Shown piece after piece: positions 1,973 through 33,387 of a DNA stretch of 64,000 nt (position 1 is the first letter of the stretch; each line of letters starts with the position of its first letter). Below the pieces are notes generated by a model. It was not told the origin of the DNA. It saw only the letters and a program-made list of their open reading frames with translations, and did not search any database. The translations under genes were made by a program, and so were the position numbers. Source of the stretch: an uncultured Solirubrobacterales bacterium (lineage in GTDB: Bacteria > Actinomycetota > Thermoleophilia > Solirubrobacterales > Solirubrobacteraceae); assembly GCA_963756655.1 (NCBI GenBank), contig CAVWOQ010000038.1, forward strand, positions 7,178-71,177, written 5' to 3'.

Positions 1973-3627
1973 GACTCGCGGGGAGTCTCGTCAAGGGTGC
2001 CGTCAGGATGCCCAAGGACAACGACTCGGCGTGGCTGCTCGATCGGCACAAGCGCGGGCTGCAGAACCTCGATCGGATGCGTCGCTACGGGGCCAGCGAA
2101 CCCGTCGACATGGTCGTCGTCGGGGCGGGCGCGGGCGGGATCACGCTCGCGCAGCGACTGGCGCGGGCGGGCTGGCGGATCGTGATCTTGGAGAAGGGAC
2201 CGTTCTGGGATCCAGACCGGGACTGGGTGTCAGACGAGAAAGGCGCCGGCCCGATCTACTGGACCGACAAGCGGATCATCTCGGGCGACGACCCGGTCGA
2301 GATGGGCAAGAACAACTGTGGCGTCGGAGTGGGAGGGTCGATGACCCACTTCGCCGGCTACGTGCCGCGCTTTCACCCGTCTGATTTCGAGGTCCGGACG
2401 CGTGACGGTGTCGCGGTCGACTGGCCGATCTCGTACTGGGATCTGAAGCCCGCCTTCGAGCGCGTCGAGCGTGAGCTGCCGGTCGCCGGCCAAGACTGGC
2501 CGTGGGGGGACCCGCACACCTATCCCCACGCCCCGCACCCGATCTCGGGCGCTGCCGCCGTTGCGTGGCGCGGGGCGGAGGACCTCGGAATCGAGATGCG
2601 GGTCGGTCCGGTTTCGATCACCAACGGAGCGTTCGGTAACCGGCCGCACTGCATCTATCGCGGCTTCTGCCTGCAGGGCTGCAAGGTCAACGCGAAGGCA
2701 AGCCCGCTGATCACCCACCTGCCCGACGCGATCGAGCACGGAGTCGAGGTGCGTGCGAACGCGATGGCCGTTCGCGTCGAGATCGACGGGTCAAGTGGAC
2801 GTTGCACGGGCGTCACTTACGTCAAGGACGACAAGGAGTGCTTCGTTGCAGCCGATGCGGTGGCCGTCTGCGGCTACGCGATCGAGACGCCGAGGCTGCT
2901 GCTGCACTCGACCAGCGCCCGCCACCCCAACGGGATCGGCAACCAGTCAGATCAGCTCGGCCGCTACGTGATGGTGCAGGGCGCGACGCAGGTAGCGGGA
3001 CGTTTTCCGGACGATCTGCGGATGTACAAGGCGCCCCCGCCCGAGGTCTCGAGCGAGCAGTTCTACGAGACCGACCCGAGCCGTGATTTCGCCCGCGGTT
3101 TCTCGATCCAGACGGTCGCGCCGCTGCCGATCGGGTGGGCCGAACACGTGCACGGCGACGGCCATTGGGGCGCGGCGCTGCGCGAGTATATGCGCGACTA
3201 CAACCACTGGACGATTCTTGGGCTCTTGTGCGAGCTGCTGCCGCAGCCCGACAACCGTGTGACGCTCGCCGACGAGCGCGACCAGTATGGGATGCCGATC
3301 GCCAACTTCTCGCACTCGCTGTGCGAGAACGACAAGCGCAACATCGCTTTTGCGACCAAGACGATCGAGCAGATCTGGGAGCACGCCGGAGCCCAGGATC
3401 AACTCAAGATCGACCGCTTCGCGCACCTGGTCGGCGGCGCGCGGATGGGCTTTGACCCCGACGACAGCGTGGTCGACGCCAACCACCGTGTCTGGGAGGT
3501 GCCGAACCTGTTCATCGTTGACGGCAGCGTGTTCCCGACCCAGGGAGCCGCGAACCCCGCGCTGGTGATCATGGCGCTCGCAGATCGTTGCGCGCAGCTG
3601 CTAAAGCACAAGCGGGTCGTCGCGTGA
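1969..3627 (+). CDS. GMC family oxidoreductase
   Basis: FAD motif VVVGAGAGG, GVGVGGS, CIYRGFCLQGC, HLVGGARMG, NLFIVDGSVFPT; ATGA overlap with the previous stop. Confidence 0.92.
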   Translation: MRLAGSLVKGAVRMPKDNDSAWLLDRHKRGLQNLDRMRRYGASEPVDMVVVGAGAGGITLAQRLARAGWRIVILEKGPFWDPDRDWVSDEKGAGPIYWTDKRIISGDDPVEMGKNNCGVGVGGSMTHFAGYVPRFHPSDFEVRTRDGVAVDWPISYWDLKPAFERVERELPVAGQDWPWGDPHTYPHAPHPISGAAAVAWRGAEDLGIEMRVGPVSITNGAFGNRPHCIYRGFCLQGCKVNAKASPLITHLPDAIEHGVEVRANAMAVRVEIDGSSGRCTGVTYVKDDKECFVAADAVAVCGYAIETPRLLLHSTSARHPNGIGNQSDQLGRYVMVQGATQVAGRFPDDLRMYKAPPPEVSSEQFYETDPSRDFARGFSIQTVAPLPIGWAEHVHGDGHWGAALREYMRDYNHWTILGLLCELLPQPDNRVTLADERDQYGMPIANFSHSLCENDKRNIAFATKTIEQIWEHAGAQDQLKIDRFAHLVGGARMGFDPDDSVVDANHRVWEVPNLFIVDGSVFPTQGAANPALVIMALADRCAQLLKHKRVVA

Positions 3628-26410: not shown

Positions 26411-26860
26411 CTACTTCGCCTGGCTCGCGCAGCTCTCGCAGAGCCCGACGATCGCGAAATGCGTGAAGCGGGCCGTGTGGCCGAAGTTGTCCTTGATGTG
26501 TTCGCGGACCGGCGCCAGCTGATCGGGGTCGAGCACCGTGACCTTGCCGCAGCGTTCGCAATAGAGGTACTCGCCGTCGTCGCGTCCGACGAGCGCGTAC
26601 AGGCCCGGCCCGTGCCCGAGGTGGACGTGGCGGATCAGACCATGGCGTTCGAGCACCTCGAGGTTGCGGTAGACAGACGACTCGTCGAGCGTCAGCGTTC
26701 GCGCCAGGTCAGGGGCCGAGACCGGGCCGTCGGTCGCGAACAGCGCCTCGATCACCAGTCGGCGTGGGGTCGACAGGCGCAGCCCAGAGGTGCGCAGCGC
26801 GTCGATCGCCTGATCGGGACTCGAGACCGCCAGCCGCGGCACGTCGGGCGCGATCGTCAC
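26411..26860 (-). CDS. nur: Fur-family regulator, most like nickel-responsive Nur
   Basis: GLRLSTPRRLV, SSVYRNLEVL, HVHLGHG, CERC, THFAIVGLCESC; start overlaps the NiCoT stop. Confidence 0.8.
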   Translation of the reverse strand: MTIAPDVPRLAVSSPDQAIDALRTSGLRLSTPRRLVIEALFATDGPVSAPDLARTLTLDESSVYRNLEVLERHGLIRHVHLGHGPGLYALVGRDDGEYLYCERCGKVTVLDPDQLAPVREHIKDNFGHTARFTHFAIVGLCESCASQAK

Positions 26861-27978
26861 GGCCCGACGCCGGGCTGTTCGAGGTGTGCACTCCAGCGCT
26901 CCTCGATCCGGCCGAGCCTCCACACCGACAGCGCGATCGCCCACGTCGCGACGAACATCCCGACGATCACGAAGCCGAGGACGTTGATGTCGATGTTCTC
27001 GAACCAGTTCCAGAACGAGCCCGACAGGTTGAGCTCCGACGCGAACAGGCCCCCGACCTCGATCGTCCCGATCACGAGCGCGACGGCGACCGATAGGCCC
27101 GTGATCGTGATGTTGTAGAAGACCTTGCGGACCGGCTTCGAAAAGGCCCAGCCGTAGGCGAAGTTCATGAACGAGCCATCGATCGAGTCCATCAGCGACA
27201 TCCCGGCGGCGAACAGGACCGGCAGGCACAGAATCGCGTACCAGGGGAGCCCGGCAGCGCCGGCGCTCCCAGCGATCACGAGCAATGCGACCTCGGTCGC
27301 GGTGTCGAACCCGAGCCCGAATAGGACTCCGATCGGGTACATCTGCTGGGGCTTGGTCACGGTCTTGGTGAGCCGGCCGAAGAAGCGGTTCATCAGCCCG
27401 CGACTGTCGAGCTGGCGCTCGAGCGCCGCCTCGTCGTAGCGGCCGGTCTTCATCTCGCGAAAGACGCGGATGATCCCGAACAGGATCACGATGTTGAGCG
27501 CGGCGATCAGGTAGAGAAACCCGCCGGAGACGCCGGTGCCGATCGAGTTGGTCGTCTGGTGAAGCGTCGAGGTGTCGTTCTTGACCGGGCCGTCGAGCGC
27601 GCGCACGCCGAGCGAGATCAGCAGCGCGAGCGCGAACACGATCGTCGAGTGCCCGAGGGAAAACCAGAACCCGACGCTCATCGGTCGCTTCCCCTCGGCC
27701 ATCAGCTTGCGGGTGGTGTTGTCGATCGCCGAGATGTGGTCGGCGTCAAACGCGTGCCGCAAACCGAGCGTGTACGCCGTGACACCGATCCCGATCGTGA
27801 ACGCGCCGGTTCTGCCGAGGTGGTAGTGGCTCGGAGCGACGACCGCGACCAGAACTACGAAGCCCGCGACGTGCAAAGCGACGACGACGAACGCCATCAT
27901 CATCATGGTCCGGCGCTGGCCGGAGTCGAGCGATCCCCAGAAGGACCTGGTCCTGCTGGCCAGCGAAGCGACCGACAA
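26857..27978 (-). CDS. High-affinity nickel/cobalt permease (NiCoT; HoxN/HupN/NixA family)
   Basis: Signature LRHAFDADHISAID, FSLGHSTIV, LFGLGFDTATE, MDSIDG. Confidence 0.95.
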   Translation of the reverse strand: MSVASLASRTRSFWGSLDSGQRRTMMMMAFVVVALHVAGFVVLVAVVAPSHYHLGRTGAFTIGIGVTAYTLGLRHAFDADHISAIDNTTRKLMAEGKRPMSVGFWFSLGHSTIVFALALLISLGVRALDGPVKNDTSTLHQTTNSIGTGVSGGFLYLIAALNIVILFGIIRVFREMKTGRYDEAALERQLDSRGLMNRFFGRLTKTVTKPQQMYPIGVLFGLGFDTATEVALLVIAGSAGAAGLPWYAILCLPVLFAAGMSLMDSIDGSFMNFAYGWAFSKPVRKVFYNITITGLSVAVALVIGTIEVGGLFASELNLSGSFWNWFENIDINVLGFVIVGMFVATWAIALSVWRLGRIEERWSAHLEQPGVGP

Positions 27979-28058: not shown

Positions 28059-28109
28059 AAGTCGCTCGTTGCAGACGACGGGTGCTAGTGTGCGAGCCAG
28101 CTTGCGGTT

Positions 28110-28221
28110 GCGCCTAGGGTTCCGCCGGCGCCCACCCGAAAAAGGGCGTTCCGGGCCTGGACCGAGCGGCGCCAGCCGGTCTGTCGACCGGCCACACCTG
28201 ACGGGATAAAAGCCCCGAGGG
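28110..28221 (+). ncRNA. ykkC-motif riboswitch (subtype-2-like variant)
   Basis: GCGCC-TAGGGTTCCG...CTGGACCGAGC-GGCGC (P1)...CACACCTGACGGGATAAAAGCCC; directly 5' of a transporter gene. Confidence 0.88.
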
Positions 28222-28247
28222 CCTCCTCTCTCCCTACCCGGAGGTCC
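28219..28247 (+). promoter_or_regulatory. Anti-SD hairpin (expression platform): GGGCCTCC pairs with GGAGGTCC containing the SD
   Basis: 8-bp stem with one G-U; SD GGAGG at 28240-28244, TTG start at 28250. Confidence 0.7.
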
Positions 28248-28249
28248 GT

Positions 28250-29083
28250 TTGCCAATCGCACCCGTCGTTCTGTTTGCCGCCGCGCTCCACGCGACCTGG
28301 AACGCGGTCGTCAAGTCCGTGACCGACCGGCTCGCGCTGATGGCGGTCATGGGCCTGTCGACGGTCGCGATCTGTGTGCCGATGGCGCTGCTTGTCAAGG
28401 CCCCGAGCAGCGCGGCGTGGCCGGAGATCGCAGGCTCGGTGCTGCTGCATACGGTCTACAACCTGTTGCTGATCGAGACCTACCGCGACGGGGACTACAA
28501 CCAGGTCTACCCCGTCGCGCGCGGGATCGCACCGCCGACTGTCGCGATCGCGTCGGTGCTGATCGTCGGTGAGACGCTCAGCGCGGTGCAGGCCGCGGGG
28601 GTGTTGATCGTCAGCGGCGGGCTGATGGTGCTGGCCCACGGCAGCCGCCACGAGCCCAAGCGTGCGCTCGCGTTCGCCGCCCTGACGGGCCTGCTGATCG
28701 CCTCGTACACGGTCGTCGACGGCGTCGGCGTGCGCCGGTCTGACTCGGTGCTCGGCTACACGAGCTGGCTGTTCACCGCCGAAGGGTTGATGATGGTTGG
28801 CGCGCTGGTCGTCGGCACCAGGCTCAGCGCCCGGCGGCCGACGTTCGACCGCGAGCTCGTGCAGCGCGGTGCGGTCGCCGGGGTACTGTCGCTGATCGCC
28901 TACGGCCTCGTCCTCTGGGCGCAGACCCGCGGGGCGCTGGCGGTCGTCGCCGCGCTGCGTGAGACGAGCGTCGTGTTCGCCGCGATGATCGGCGCGGTCG
29001 TGTTCCACGAGCAAATGCCGAGCCGGCGGATCCTTGCCAGCGTCCTGATCGCGGCCGGCGCCGCCGCGCTGGCGCTGGGCTGA
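28250..29083 (+). CDS. EamA/DMT family transporter
   Basis: AAALHATWNAVVK, YNQVYPVARG, IASYTVVDG, VAALRETSVVFA; about 10 TM helices. Confidence 0.9.
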   Translation: MPIAPVVLFAAALHATWNAVVKSVTDRLALMAVMGLSTVAICVPMALLVKAPSSAAWPEIAGSVLLHTVYNLLLIETYRDGDYNQVYPVARGIAPPTVAIASVLIVGETLSAVQAAGVLIVSGGLMVLAHGSRHEPKRALAFAALTGLLIASYTVVDGVGVRRSDSVLGYTSWLFTAEGLMMVGALVVGTRLSARRPTFDRELVQRGAVAGVLSLIAYGLVLWAQTRGALAVVAALRETSVVFAAMIGAVVFHEQMPSRRILASVLIAAGAAALALG

Positions 29084-29126: not shown

Positions 29127-29612
29127 GTGCTCCGGCGCGTGTTCGCGTTCTCTGTCTGCTGGCTGCTGGCGGCCGGGGTGTACCTGCTGCTGATCGACAT
29201 CACCGATCTGCCGGAGCTGATCGTCGGCGCCGGCGCGGCGCTGCTGGCCGCCGTTGGCTTCGAGTTGACGCGCGAGCGGGAGATCGCGGATCTGAGCACG
29301 AGGTGGCGCTGGCTGGGACGGCTCTACAGGCCGGTGCTCAAGGTTCCGTCCGATGTGCTTGCGGTGTCGCTCGTCGCCTTGCGCCAGCTCCGTCACGCGC
29401 GGGCGGTCAACGGCGAGTTTCGCGCAGTCCGCTTCCGCTGTGGCGAGGACGAGCGACTCGAGACCGGGAAGTGGGCGCTGGCGGAGTCGTTCGGGTCGTT
29501 CGCCCCGAACACGATCATCGTCGGAGTAGACCCCGAGCGCGAGCTGATCCTCGGCCATCAGCTTCGCCGCTCCGGTGCGGCTGATGCGATCGACGTGCTG
29601 GGGCTCGGATGA
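29127..29612 (+). CDS. mrpE: Mrp/Mnh antiporter subunit E-like
   Basis: N-terminal TM pair, ELIVG, SFAPNTIIVGVD..LILGH. Confidence 0.7.
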   Translation: MLRRVFAFSVCWLLAAGVYLLLIDITDLPELIVGAGAALLAAVGFELTREREIADLSTRWRWLGRLYRPVLKVPSDVLAVSLVALRQLRHARAVNGEFRAVRFRCGEDERLETGKWALAESFGSFAPNTIIVGVDPERELILGHQLRRSGAADAIDVLGLG

Positions 29613-29860
29613 ACGAGTGGCAGATCGCAGCGGCGGTGTTGGGCGCGGCATTCATCCCGTGCGTTGCAATCGCGCTGCTGGCGTCGCCGACGCATGGCCT
29701 CGCGGCCGCCGAGGTCGCCGCGGTGCTGTTGAGCACGATCCTGATGCTGCTGTCGGAGGGGTTTCACCGCCAGCCGTTCATCGATCTCGCTGTCGTGTTC
29801 GCCCCGATGTCGCTCGTCGGCTCACTGATGTTCGCGCGGCTGATGGAGCGCCACCTATGA
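29609..29860 (+). CDS. mrpF: Mrp/Mnh subunit F-like
   Basis: 83 aa, three TM helices, FIDLAVV..SLVGSLMFARLMER. Confidence 0.75.
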   Translation: MNEWQIAAAVLGAAFIPCVAIALLASPTHGLAAAEVAAVLLSTILMLLSEGFHRQPFIDLAVVFAPMSLVGSLMFARLMERHL

Positions 29861-30186
29861 GCTGGCGCGCGATCGTCGCGCTGCTCCTGCTGATCACCGG
29901 CGGCGCTCTGGAGCTGCTGGCGGTGATCGGCATGTGTGCGATGCGAGATGTCTACGACCGTCTGCACTACGTCGGGCTAGCCGGCTTCGGCGCCTTTCTG
30001 ATCTCGGCGGCGATCGTCTTTCGCGAGTCGTTTTCGCTGATCGGCGACAAGGCGCTGCTGGTGGGCGTGGTGCTGATCGTGACCGGTCCGATCCTCGTGC
30101 AGACGACGGTGCGTAGCTTCCTAATCCGCGAGCACGGCGACTGGAGGGCGAAGATCGCCGACGCCGAGCCGGAGGAGGGGCGGTGA
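29857..30186 (+). CDS. mrpG: Mrp/Mnh subunit G-like
   Basis: DVYDRLH motif, three TM helices. Confidence 0.8.
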   Translation: MSWRAIVALLLLITGGALELLAVIGMCAMRDVYDRLHYVGLAGFGAFLISAAIVFRESFSLIGDKALLVGVVLIVTGPILVQTTVRSFLIREHGDWRAKIADAEPEEGR

Positions 30187-30461
30187 CCGTGCTGCAGATC
30201 GCGGCGCTGGCGGCGGTGGCGGTCGGCGGCACCGCGGCGGTCGCGGCACGAGATCCACTGCGTCAGACGCTGGTGATCGCGATCTACGGGATGGCGCTGA
30301 CGATGCTGTTCTTCGTCTTCCAAGCGCCGGACGTAGCGCTGTCCGAGATCGTCGTGTCGAGCGTCGGTTTGCCTGTCATGGTCCTGCTCGCGCTGCGCAA
30401 GGTGCGTGAGCAGGAGCAGGAACAAGGGCGCCAGCCGCAGGACGAGCGCGAGCAAGAATGA
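30183..30461 (+). CDS. Standalone DUF4040 (MrpA C-terminal/MrpB N-terminal domain) protein
   Basis: FQAPDVALSEIVV. Confidence 0.8.
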   Translation: MTVLQIAALAAVAVGGTAAVAARDPLRQTLVIAIYGMALTMLFFVFQAPDVALSEIVVSSVGLPVMVLLALRKVREQEQEQGRQPQDEREQE

Positions 30462-31219
30462 GCCGGCGGGCCCGCCTGACGCTGTTCGCGGTCGCCGGCG
30501 CCGGATTCGGAGCGGTGCTCGTGATCGGCTTCGCGAAACTGCCGGCGTTCGGCCACTACCACGGCGTCTACGGACGGGTGCTCGATGGAGTCGGGGTCAG
30601 CCTGCGTCATGCCACTGACCTCGTGACCGGCCTCAACTTCGACTTTCGTGGCTTCGACACCCTGGGGGAGGAATTTATCCTGTTCGGATCTGTGCTTGGG
30701 GTGATCCTGATCCTGCGCGACATGCGCGAGGAGAGCGGCCCTCCCAACCGGCGCGAGGCGGACGAGCACGCTTTTGGAGGAGCGAGCGAGGCGCTGCGAG
30801 CGCTCTCGCTCGTGCTCGTCGCGGCGCTTATCGCGCTCGGGATATACATCGTCGTGCACGGGCAGCTGACGCCAGGTGGTGGCTTTCAGGGCGGGCTGAT
30901 CCTCGCCACGGCCCCGCTGGCGGTGTTCGTCGGCGGCCGCTACATCCGGATGAGGTTCGTCGCGCCGCACCTGCTGGTCGAGCTCGGCGACGCGATCGGC
31001 GCGGTCGGCTACGCGCTCGTCGGGCTCGCCGGGCTGGTGTTCGTCGGTGTGTTCTTCAAGAACTTCCTGCCGTTGGGAATACCAGGGCATCTGCTGTCGG
31101 CCGGGCAGATGGACATCGCCAGCACGGCGGTCGGGCTCGAGGTGAGCGGGGCTTTCCTGGTCGCCTGGAGCGAGTTTCTCGATCAGGCGATCCTCGTCGA
31201 GGAGGGAGAAGAGGCGTGA
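30458..31219 (+). CDS. mrpB: Mrp/Mnh subunit B
   Basis: DFRGFDTLGEEFIL, HGQLTPGGGFQGG, VGLEV. Confidence 0.88.
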   Translation: MSRRARLTLFAVAGAGFGAVLVIGFAKLPAFGHYHGVYGRVLDGVGVSLRHATDLVTGLNFDFRGFDTLGEEFILFGSVLGVILILRDMREESGPPNRREADEHAFGGASEALRALSLVLVAALIALGIYIVVHGQLTPGGGFQGGLILATAPLAVFVGGRYIRMRFVAPHLLVELGDAIGAVGYALVGLAGLVFVGVFFKNFLPLGIPGHLLSAGQMDIASTAVGLEVSGAFLVAWSEFLDQAILVEEGEEA

Positions 31220-31560
31220 GCTTCGCGCCGTTCGCGGTCGCCGCTTGGCTGTTCGTCGCCGGCCTGTACGGGGTCGTCTCGAGCCGCAACCTGATTCGGA
31301 CGATCCTGTCGCTGACGGTCGTCCAGTCGGCGACCTACCTGCTGCTGCTGGGCATCGGCTACCGCAACGGCGGGCAGGCGCCCATCTTCGCCGACATCCC
31401 GGCCGTCAGCAAAGCGGTCGATCCGGTGGTCCAGGTCCTGGTGCTGACTGACATCGTGATCGAGGCGACCGTCACGGGACTCCTGCTGGCCCTCGCGATC
31501 CAGGCGCACAAACGGTTCGGCAGCCTCGACCCGAACGACCTGCGCGCGCTGCGCGACTAG
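31216..31560 (+). CDS. mrpC: Mrp/Mnh subunit C
   Basis: SRNLIRTILSL, DPVVQVLVLTDIVI. Confidence 0.88.
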   Translation: MSFAPFAVAAWLFVAGLYGVVSSRNLIRTILSLTVVQSATYLLLLGIGYRNGGQAPIFADIPAVSKAVDPVVQVLVLTDIVIEATVTGLLLALAIQAHKRFGSLDPNDLRALRD

Positions 31561-31563
31561 CGC

Positions 31564-33387
31564 ATGCACATCACGGCGCTTCCTGTCTTGATTCCGATGA
31601 TCGGCGCTGCGATGCTGGTGGCGGTCAGACACTGGGCGCCGCGATGGTTCAACGACCTCGCCGCGACGGCGGTGGCGATGAGCGTCGTCGTGCTGTGCGC
31701 GATCCTGCTTGTCCACGCCGGGCATAACCCGTTCGCGTACTGGATGGGCGGCTGGCGGCCCAGCCACCAAGTGACGATCGGGATCTCTTTCAGTGTCGAC
31801 TCGGTCGGCGCCGGAATGGCGACCTTCTCGGCGCTGCTGGTGAGCGCGGCGTTGATCTACTCATGGCGCTACTTCGACTCCGCCGACGGGCTGTTCCACG
31901 CCCTGATGCTCGTGTTCCTGGCGGCGGTCGTTGGCTTCTCGCTGACCGGGGATCTGTTCAACCTGGTCGTTTTCTTTGAGCTGATGGGGGCGGTCGCCTA
32001 CGCTCTGACCGCTTACAAGATCGAGGAACGGGGCCCGATTCAGGGCGCGATCAACTTCGCGATCTCCAACAGCATCGGCGCGTACGCGATCTTCATCGGC
32101 GTCGGCCTCCTGTATGCCCGGACCGGGGCGCTCAACATGGCCCAGATCGGCAAGACGCTCGATGGCCACCCGGCCGACCCGCTGGTCGTGCTCGCGCTGA
32201 CGCTCCTGTTCGCGGGCTTTTTGACCAAAGCGGCTGTCGTCCCAATGCACTTCTGGCTCGCCGACGCGCACGCCGTCGCCCCAACGCCCGTCTGTGTCCT
32301 GTTCTCGGGAGTGATGGTCGAGCTCGGGATCTACGCGATCGCCCGCCTCTACTGGGCGATCTTCGCGGGCGCGATCGGCCCGCACGAGTTCCAGCTGCGC
32401 GCGATCCTGATCGCGTTCGGGACCGTCACTGCGCTCTGGGGGGCCGTGATGTGCTTTTCGCAACGCCACATCAAGAGGCTGCTGGCGTTCTCGACCATCA
32501 GCCACGTCGGAATGTTCGTCTGCGGGCTCGGGCTGCTGAGCGCTAAGGGGCTCGCGGGTGTCGCCACCTACGTGGTCGGGCATGGCTTGACCAAGGCCGC
32601 GCTGTTCATGCTCACAGGGGTCCTGCTGCACCGTTTCGGGACGGTCGACGAGTTCGACCTGCATGGCCGCGGCCGGGAGCTGCGCGTCGTCGGCGTGCTG
32701 TTCGCGCTCGGCGGACTGATGCTCGCGGCGCTGCCGGTGGTGACTGAGTTCTTCGGCAAGTCGCTGCTCGACGGCGCAGCTATTGACGCCAACTACGGGT
32801 GGCTGCTGGCCGTGTTCGTGATCGCGTCGATGCTCACCGGAGGGGCAGTGCTGCGCGTGGCCGGTCGCGTCTTCTGGGGCTGGGGTCCGGCTGTCGGCGG
32901 TGACGACGGACAGCAGGAGCGCGTCGCGAGGGTGCAGGACGAGGAGCGCGGCGCGGCTGGGTGGACACCGCCGTTGATGGTGATCGTGCCCGCGACGCTG
33001 CTATTGGCCGCGATCGTGGTCGGCCTGATTCCGGGCGCCGTGCCCGCGATCGAGCGCGCGGCTGACCAGTTCCACGATCATCGCGCCTACGTGGGTTGGG
33101 TGCTAACCGGGCGGCGGCCGCACTTCGGCAACGTCGCGACGAGCCACGTCGAGGCGTACGACTACCTCTACGCGGCCGGGGCGAGCCTCGGGGCGGTAGC
33201 GCTGGCAGCTCTGGGACTGTTCGGACGGCCGTTGCGCGATCGCCTGCCGGGCGTCCTCATCCGGCCGGTTGTCGCAAGCGTCGATCGGCTGCGGTCACTG
33301 CACAGCGGCCACATCGGCGACTACATCGCCTGGTGGACGACCGGTGCCGCGTTGCTCGGCGGCGCCTCGATGCTGCTGCTGACATGA
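31564..33387 (+). CDS. mrpD: Mrp/Mnh subunit D (complex I subunit 5 family)
   Basis: TGDLFNLVVFFELM, TKAAVVPMHFWLADAHAVAPTP, KRLLAFSTISHVG, HGLTKAALF. Confidence 0.88.
   Translation: MHITALPVLIPMIGAAMLVAVRHWAPRWFNDLAATAVAMSVVVLCAILLVHAGHNPFAYWMGGWRPSHQVTIGISFSVDSVGAGMATFSALLVSAALIYSWRYFDSADGLFHALMLVFLAAVVGFSLTGDLFNLVVFFELMGAVAYALTAYKIEERGPIQGAINFAISNSIGAYAIFIGVGLLYARTGALNMAQIGKTLDGHPADPLVVLALTLLFAGFLTKAAVVPMHFWLADAHAVAPTPVCVLFSGVMVELGIYAIARLYWAIFAGAIGPHEFQLRAILIAFGTVTALWGAVMCFSQRHIKRLLAFSTISHVGMFVCGLGLLSAKGLAGVATYVVGHGLTKAALFMLTGVLLHRFGTVDEFDLHGRGRELRVVGVLFALGGLMLAALPVVTEFFGKSLLDGAAIDANYGWLLAVFVIASMLTGGAVLRVAGRVFWGWGPAVGGDDGQQERVARVQDEERGAAGWTPPLMVIVPATLLLAAIVVGLIPGAVPAIERAADQFHDHRAYVGWVLTGRRPHFGNVATSHVEAYDYLYAAGASLGAVALAALGLFGRPLRDRLPGVLIRPVVASVDRLRSLHSGHIGDYIAWWTTGAALLGGASMLLLT

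Follow-up and report, generated by a model that had tools for sequence, protein, structure and literature searches.

Which branch of the ykkC riboswitch family stands before the EamA/DMT transporter gene of this uncultured Solirubrobacterales bacterium, and how would it act on that gene? The stretch analysed here (the window, 64,000 nucleotides (nt) of contig CAVWOQ010000038.1) had been the subject of a preliminary description made from its letters, in which a ykkC RNA other than guanidine-I was recognised at this locus and taken to be either 2d-like or a new subtype. We find that the RNA is probably a new member of the published orphan ykkC subtype 2d, placed in the leader of the EamA gene, and that it would act as a translational ON switch. 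Judged from sequence, the bases that contact guanidine are lost, the ykkC scaffold (P1, P1a/b, P2 and P3 with its AUAAAAG loop) is kept and the lower part of P3 is remodelled to ACA-N-CUGAC...Y-GA-GG-N'. Subtype 2d reportedly goes back, as an orphan candidate, to Nelson et al. 2017 and Sherlock et al. 2018 and 2019.

The match to the ykkC fold is real and lies far beyond chance. The Rfam model of the guanidine-I riboswitch (RF00442) aligned over its full length, model positions 1-107, to 28103-28222 of the forward strand with 50.6 bits; the E-value is 3.2e-8 within the local stretch and 4.6e-6 when both strands of the whole 64-kb window are counted. The Rfam ykkC model, which the preliminary description had named as a check on the element, recovers it, though at 50.6 bits against a gathering threshold of 63 bits. 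RF00442 was the sole Rfam family matched in the window at E <= 0.1, and a scan of the window with Rfam 15 at gathering thresholds gave no match; the relatives described below score 41.8-59.5 bits with the same model. Default Rfam annotation is therefore blank at the element, its RF00442 score being under the threshold. The arrangement of P1-P1a-P1b, P2 and P3 with UAGGGUUCCG, GGNCCGAG, ACAC and GGGAYAAAAGCCC is that of the ykkC/guanidine-I fold, and every hallmark string of the preliminary description was found where it had been placed, including TAGGGTTCCG (28115-28124), GGACCGAGCGG (28159-28169), ACACC (28194-28198) and the tail string CCCCGAGGG (28213-28221). The parts of the aptamer are as follows.

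28099..28221, +: whole aptamer, ykkC fold, subtype-2d-like class (RF00442 match; class model R1, see below)
28110..28114, +: P1 5' strand GCGCC, pairing with 28168-28172 (3 of 5 P1 pairs with compensatory changes)
28115..28163, +: P1a/P1b arm with invariant UAGGGUUCCG (28115-28124) and invariant GGACC (28159-28163)
28125-28128 with 28151-28154, +: P1b; distal stem 28129-28133 with 28144-28148 (minimum free energy (MFE) fold, alignment)
28167, +: discriminator C in GAG-C-G, equal to A46 (Reiss) or A38 (Battaglia) of guanidine-I
28168..28172, +: P1 3' strand GGCGC, pairing with 28110-28114 (P1 covariation)
28175..28192, +: P2 hairpin GCCGGUC-UGUC-GACCGGC (per-sequence folding)
28194..28202, +: junction and lower P3 5' strand ACACCUGAC (pair 28197:28221 covaries)
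28197-28199 (CCU) with 28219-28221, +: P3a closing helix (RNAalifold, covariation of the outer pair)
28203..28215, +: P3, GGG-AUAAAAG-CCC, with invariant A-rich loop (GGGATAAAAGCCC; invariant in alignment A1, a ykkC hallmark in the Rfam alignment)
28216..28221, +: 3' tail CGAGGG, with G28217 and A28218 invariant (class alignment)

The assignment to a subtype turns on two of these bases and on the gene downstream. Subtype 2 RNAs carry a pyrimidine at the position of guanidine-I A46 (Reiss numbering) or A38 (Battaglia numbering; PMC6031431; PMC5340920), and a pyrimidine also at that of G67 (PMC5340920). Their equivalents in the window are C28167 and C28198, the latter taking the place of the G67 that forms the floor of the guanidine pocket. 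Since both of the purines that define guanidine-I are pyrimidines here, the window RNA is a ykkC subtype 2 by the published criterion; the bases of guanidine-I itself are absent, the S-turn G84/G85 included, as the tail reads CGAGGG and not GGGAG. The retained subtype-2 pyrimidines coordinate Mg2+ or water in the structures with guanosine tetraphosphate (ppGpp) and phosphoribosyl pyrophosphate (PRPP) (PMC8457001). The subtype-2 signatures given in the preliminary description (GACCGAGCG and ACACC) are those seen in the PRPP alignment of PMC5912903 (supplementary file 2) and are consistent with the pyrimidines at the A38 and G67 positions (PMC5340920), and its view that the RNA is a variant other than guanidine-I is upheld by more than 100 relatives in which the variant bases are kept.

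Within subtype 2 the division is by gene association, 2a being linked to ppGpp, 2b to PRPP and 2c to (d)ADP/(d)CDP, and the orphan 2d being defined by an EamA (phn_DUF6) or TauE gene (PMC7266159, PMC5912903). Extra conserved 5' and 3' nucleotides are reported for 2a, 2b and 2c and not for 2d, whose consensus is described as the closest to guanidine-I among the subtypes (PMC5912903). As of 2020-2021 subtype 2d was an orphan without a structure, and in the literature up to 2026 we found no report of a 2d ligand. The window RNA has the gene association of 2d, an EamA gene with a TIGR03340 phn_DUF6 match, and its RNA class also takes in RNAs that precede TauE genes; with EamA downstream, it lacks the gene context of 2a, 2b or 2c (branched-chain amino acid (BCAA), glutamate synthase, natA, purine and NUDIX/HAD genes). 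The preliminary description had held that the downstream gene fits no subtype. This does not stand, as EamA (phn_DUF6) is a published hallmark of 2d. Of its two proposals '2d-like' is the one that survives, and a new subtype is less likely because EamA (phn_DUF6) or TauE downstream is the published association by which 2d is defined.

The downstream gene and the leader that precedes it are placed thus.

28250..29083, +: EamA/DMT transporter gene, 277 amino acids (aa), TTG start (Pfam EamA, PF00892)

Its product contains two EamA domains (59.2 bits against a Pfam cut-off of 28.2), and at the N-terminus it aligns with orthologues whose start codon is GTG or TTG. The sole NCBIfam match, to TIGR03340 phn_DUF6, reached 140.7 bits where the equivalog cut-off is 288 bits, so that the protein is a relative and not an equivalog; no phn genes were found near it. 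Positions 28099-28249 on the forward strand are likely to be the leader of the mRNA for this phn_DUF6-like exporter.

Relatives were collected by two pattern scans. A generic subtype-2 pattern, run over 185,579 species genomes, gave at least 120 matches that were sorted by downstream gene, and a metagenome scan with the pattern CCGAGNG...CANCTRANGGGANAAAAGCCNNGAGG, which leaves the discriminator base free, gave at least 121. The more than 100 relatives so obtained come from soil metagenomes and from genomes of Actinomycetota and Deinococcota. In 119 of the 121 metagenome matches listed the discriminator is C, although the pattern does not constrain it. Two class members (L128 and L219) carry A there, have the P1 3' strand replaced (CCGAGAGGACAG) and may be degenerate or rearranged copies. 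A further locus, L217, has two tandem copies of the aptamer's 3' half (CCGAGCG...GAGGGCUCC) on one strand before EamA, by partial duplication or as a tandem arrangement. Among the metagenome loci listed with a readable downstream open reading frame, 107 of 111 precede EamA or MFS genes (96 EamA of the window's cluster, 6 of a second EamA family and 5 MFS); the transporter association claimed in the preliminary description is near-universal among them.

A class covariance model (R1) was built from 55 non-redundant sequences. It scores the window at 111 bits (E 7e-29, 28099-28226) and finds no second copy in it. Among the genome matches listed, R1 separates 12 members (75-115 bits) from all other subtype-2 RNAs, the PRPP-like, ppGpp-like and proteobacterial ones included (71 bits or less). 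These 12 stand before 7 EamA, 3 TauE and 2 MFS genes, the TauE-associated RNAs (L022, L033 and L092) scoring 86-95 bits within the window's class. Their carriers are metagenome-assembled genomes (MAGs) of Solirubrobacterales, a Trueperaceae MAG, Kribbella, Asanoa, Actinopolymorpha, Actinoplanes and a Geodermatophilaceae MAG. The locus L003 combines an EamA orthologue of 54% identity with a near-identical aptamer.

The named structure was compared with the 55 non-redundant sequences of class alignment A1, in which P1 and P1b covary strongly. Standard pairs occupy 97.3% of cells, against 87.8% after shuffling and at most 54% with partners slid, and compensatory changes on both sides occur at 9 pairs. 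Three of the five P1 pairs are among those with such changes, the pair types being CG/UA 44/11, GC/AU 52/3 and CG/UG/UA 43/7/5, and in proximal P1b all five pairs have changed on both sides; distal P1b is shorter in the window's own subgroup (Solirubrobacterales-like) than in most class members. P2 was assessed by folding each sequence separately because the MAFFT alignment shifts its register between sequences and covariation cannot be counted there; the segment forms a single hairpin in 56 of 57 class representatives, with a median z of -3.0 against shuffles. The outer pair of P3a, N:N' (28197:28221), is CG in 44, UA in 6, AU in 3 and GC in 1 of the sequences of A1, and over 109 distinct sequences CG 90, UA 7, AU 7 and GC 3, with 2 mismatches. 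Between P3a and the GGG/CCC stem, GAC (28200-28202) faces CGA (28216-28218), which could form tandem sheared G·A pairs or could have G28217 flipped onto C28195 as in the PRPP structure.

A P0 helix, as in 2a and 2b, was sought by pairing the 5' tail with the 3' tail. No complementarity was found and the conserved AGC does not covary with the tail; there is no P0, because the conserved 5' tail lacks a complementary 3' partner. The 5' tail and the region before it contain the following.

28086..28091, +: putative -10 hexamer TAGTGT, preceded by TGC (predicted from class upstream regions)
28099..28109, +: conserved 5' tail AGCUUGCGGUU; class consensus AGCAYGYGGUU, then the first P1 base G (conserved in A1)

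A TANNNT hexamer ending 18-19 nt before the P1 block, 6-7 nt before the conserved AGC, was present in 64 of 92 distinct upstream regions, and A28099, at this AGC and 11 nt before P1, is the probable transcription start; a scan for sigma-70 consensus promoters gave no match. Two other partners for the 5' tail were considered and rejected. Its GGUUG might pair with a P1b motif ACAACCA, but changes in the tail are not matched by changes in the motif, which the window lacks. The MFE fold draws a helix of 7-8 base pairs (bp) between UGCGGUUG (28103-28110) and CAAUCGCA (28254-28261, codons 2-4), whose duplex energies equal those of permutation and shuffle controls. Pairing of the 5' tail with the early coding region stayed at background level, with matches of at least 7 bp in 51% of true and 43% of control windows.

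How the aptamer would reach the gene is suggested by the segment between them, which ends in the Shine-Dalgarno (SD) sequence.

28219..28226, +: anti-SD arm GGGCCUCC (8-bp hairpin, -14.4 kcal/mol)
28240..28247, +: SD arm GGAGGUCC, hairpin partner of GGGCCUCC, with SD GGAGG at 28240-28244

The 8-bp hairpin overlapping the 3' tail is present as the preliminary description had drawn it. It masks the SD, which ends 5 nt short of the TTG start codon at 28250, and G28219-G28221 are common to this hairpin and to aptamer helix P3a. The helix is conserved, since 87 of 108 relatives have a tail-to-SD helix of at least 5 bp whose SD-like 3' arm lies 3-10 nt before the start codon, and its arms covary (GGGCUCC/GGAGCCC, GGAACCU/AGGUUCC, GGCCUUCC/GGAAGGC). 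In the unconstrained MFE fold of the leader (-73.0 kcal/mol) the aptamer helices and the SD hairpin stand together; imposing P3a on the fold costs 7 kcal/mol and leaves a shorter hairpin, at -5.7 instead of -13.0 kcal/mol. A terminator scan found no terminator-like site, and every characterised ykkC-family switch is an ON switch (PMC6031431). These observations suggest a translational ON switch as the best-supported reading, with the direction drawn from sequence and from kin. Without ligand, G28219-G28221 and the next five bases would pair as GGGCCUCC/GGAGGUCC, the SD would be occluded and translation would be off. Bound ligand would stabilise the closing helix 28197-28199/28219-28221 at the expense of 3 of the 8 hairpin pairs, leaving the SD less occluded, so that ribosomes could load, translation would be on and the exporter would be induced.

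Several points weigh against this combined reading of a 2d RNA and a translational ON switch. The identity with 2d rests on gene association, on the subtype-2 bases and on a signature common to EamA- and TauE-associated RNAs, published 2d having been compared by its description; a proteobacterial, P0-bearing, EamA-associated subtype-2 RNA may instead be the published 2d. In P3a only N:N' is informative, because the two inner pairs (CU/GG) are preset by the search pattern. Taken alone, the SD hairpin is unexceptional against shuffles (z -1.4). Moreover, a 5-bp CCUCC/GGAGG helix could, in the modelled fold, persist after P3a forms, so that ligand may weaken SD occlusion rather than abolish it. 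The only RNA runs found were two metatranscriptomes of relatives, which held 4-7% of the words and left the leader uncovered. Lastly, the aptamer has been lost in some EamA orthologues. In L001, where the orthologue is 71% identical and has the NicO/Fur neighbours found in the window, it is deleted, all that is left being a 5' remnant gcggttgcgcctagggttc followed by the SD (2940-3000; also in L002), which looks like a natural riboswitch deletion, and it is lost likewise in L005 (56% identity; 2935-3000).

The alternatives differ in which part of this reading they would replace. It is rather unlikely that the window's class is distinct from published 2d, an undescribed P0-less ykkC variant with ACA-N-CUGAC...YGAGG-N' that is common in soil Actinomycetota and would have just the EamA association in common with 2d RNAs of Proteobacteria. 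The P0-bearing EamA RNAs of Proteobacteria score 40-55 bits with R1 against 75-115 for the window's class, the RefSeq releases used in 2017-2019 were dominated by Proteobacteria, and published 2d enters the comparison through its description. We hold the distinct class at this low level because 2d is described without extra conserved tails, which are reported for 2a-2c, and with TauE-associated RNAs, which score 86-95 bits in the window's class (L022, L033 and L092); 2d is also said to be closest to guanidine-I (PMC5912903), a description that suits the P0-less class of the window better than the proteobacterial RNAs, and two cultured carriers, Kribbella catacumbae DSM 19601 and Actinopolymorpha pittospori DSM 45354, may be in the RefSeq release searched. 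Should the window's class, abundant in soil, differ in architecture from the P0-bearing RNAs before proteobacterial EamA genes, the label 'EamA-associated ykkC subtype 2' would cover two separate orphan classes, and a small exported compound new as a riboswitch ligand would be sensed by one or both; we give this tentative idea a small chance of being right. An OFF switch, or a real aptamer that acts on transcription or RNA stability, is quite improbable. It would draw on the fact that the aptamer competes with just 3 of the 8 hairpin pairs, and terminators of high-GC actinobacteria may lack U tracts and so escape the scan. That scan was nevertheless negative, and in 87 of 108 relatives the conserved helix has the SD itself as its 3' arm, 3-10 nt before the start codon. 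An unwanted compound would also be the logical inducer of its own exporter, and the characterised ykkC relatives are all ON switches.

Both remaining alternatives give the RNA a known ligand. An ordinary, divergent guanidine-I riboswitch inducing a guanidine exporter of the DMT superfamily would account for RF00442 being the only Rfam family matched; DMT/EamA and SMR guanidine exporters share a fold (PMC9574504), and EamA proteins of the window's cluster give weak SMR-family matches. We regard it as highly improbable nonetheless, as the score of 50.6 bits is below the threshold of 63, C stands at the A38/A46 and G67 equivalents, and A28218 stands at the equivalent of G85 in the guanidine-I register. 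In each of the mutants G67A and G85A guanidine binding is lost or much weakened (PMC5340920). Sorting by the A46 position splits off the guanidine gene contexts almost completely (PMC6031431), and the subtype-2 RNAs assayed so far do not bind guanidine. There is equally little to commend a ppGpp, PRPP or nucleoside-diphosphate riboswitch (2a, 2b or 2c) whose control of a transporter would be incidental. The CCGAGCG, ACACC and YGA-GG tail found here are in common with the PRPP alignment and some ppGpp switches control ABC transporters, but the window RNA is without the P0 that those aptamers need to extend the pocket: its predicted start lies just 11 nt before P1 and its 5' tail, GYGGUUG and not GAAAGUG, is unpartnered in the 3' tail. 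BCAA, glutamate synthase, purine, NUDIX and HAD genes are never downstream in the class, and R1 sets the class apart from those RNAs.

The ligand is most likely a small, probably toxic compound exported by the EamA, TauE or MFS transporters that the class controls. The class governs single exporter genes from three unrelated families, with a methyltransferase gene in related RNAs, and these exporters come without a conserved operon partner, a pattern typical of small-compound detoxification; a small ligand is favoured also because P0 is missing. It may be a guanidine-like cation or a small anion, neither of which is preferred. A conserved operon partner was considered as a clue to the ligand and set aside, for a close second gene on the same strand was present at just 22 loci and was heterogeneous (DUF427, MFS_3, FUSC_2, CN_hydrolase, methyltransferase and Mrp subunits). 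Genes for S-adenosylmethionine (SAM)-dependent methyltransferases lie directly downstream of related RNAs at L095 and L115 (Nocardioides and an Actinomycetota MAG), and a methyltransferase gene follows EamA in L013. These neighbours are a weak hint of a detoxification route based on methylation.

Around the EamA gene itself, a divergent upstream segment (26411-27978, reverse strand), 120 nt from the riboswitch, carries genes for a NicO nickel/cobalt transporter and a Fur/ArsR-type regulator, an arrangement kept in L001 and not in L003 or L005. An operon for a multisubunit cation/proton antiporter of the Mrp/Mnh type (29127-33387, forward strand; MnhE, MnhG, MbhD, MnhB, NuoK-like and NuoL/M-like subunits) begins 43 nt after the EamA stop; it is a neighbour in L072 as well and is absent beside more distant relatives. 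Close protein relatives are annotated as Solirubrobacteraceae, and the DNA of the window is present in soil metagenome DNA runs.

Subtype 2d is the one branch of ykkC still to be solved, in a family that is a textbook case of one fold evolving several ligand specificities. In soil Actinomycetota the class described here is common, default Rfam annotation misses it, and it nearly always governs a single exporter gene (EamA, TauE or MFS) by what appears to be a simple, translational platform with a covarying pair that can be tested. Its cultured carriers (Kribbella catacumbae DSM 19601, Actinopolymorpha pittospori DSM 45354 and strains of Asanoa and Actinoplanes) offer practical starting points for a ligand screen.

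Other subtype-2 RNAs stand at varying distances from the class. The proteobacterial EamA-associated RNAs, such as those of Paracoccus denitrificans (L010), Cereibacter (L045) and Brenneria (L047), resemble it in their homologous EamA (about 30% identity, TIGR03340-like) and in a translational platform where the tail competes with a segment that pairs with the SD. They are set apart by a P0 (UCGAC/GUCGA), by their GCACCC junction and by the greater length of their tail (CAGRGGAGGAGAYGUCGAG), and reach only 40-55 bits with R1. Loci of this P0 type are L008, L010, L014, L024, L027, L041, L045, L047, L057-L060, L063, L071, L081-L083, L088, L096, L100, L110, L118 and L124, with GAGAUC/GGUCUC as anti-SD. 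A second EamA subfamily (316-344 aa, TIGR00950-like; L032, L034, L048, L079, L084, L104, L106, L113 and L116) is preceded by other subtype-2 variants with P0-like tails of their own, for example GCCAAUC...GGUUGGC in Anaerolineae/Promineifilaceae. At L039, L051, L111 and L121 (Nakamurella and an Actinomycetota MAG) the gene downstream of the subtype-2 RNA is guaA (GMP synthase); these RNAs have the tail CAGGGAGGGACCGGU and look like an actinobacterial PRPP-like group. In L098 (870-964, a Mycobacteriales MAG) the RNA before an arginase-family gene has a guanidine-I-like tail CCCGGGAG together with C at the discriminator position (A46), which may be an exception to the sorting by one position.

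With the PRPP (2b) and ppGpp (2a) riboswitches the window RNA shares the CCGAGCG and ACACC junctions and a tail of the form N-G-A-R-G-G, which permits the C(ACA-C):G register of the PRPP structure. Unlike them, its class has neither a P0 helix nor the conserved 5' tail GAAAGUG, and it differs further in platform (predicted to be translational rather than terminator-based), in genes (transporters rather than purine or BCAA genes) and in hosts (Actinomycetota and Deinococcota rather than Firmicutes). From guanidine-I (RF00442, subtype 1) it keeps the scaffold and the tertiary-contact nucleotides UAGGGUUCCG, GGNCCGAG, ACAC and GGGAYAAAAGCCC, and it is likened to that ON switch, which controls an exporter, in its presumed direction. 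It departs from guanidine-I in C28167 for A38/A46, C28198 for G67, YGAGG for the S-turn GGGAG and two extra bases in the lower P3 5' strand, and its class is without Gdx/SugE, carboxylase or related genes. Subtype 2d matches it in the ykkC fold, in the pyrimidine at the A46 position, in the changed pocket bases and in having no conserved P0-type extensions. From 2d as described we found no difference: the window RNA sits directly 5' of EamA (phn_DUF6) and relatives in its class sit 5' of TauE, with MFS as an added association of the class.

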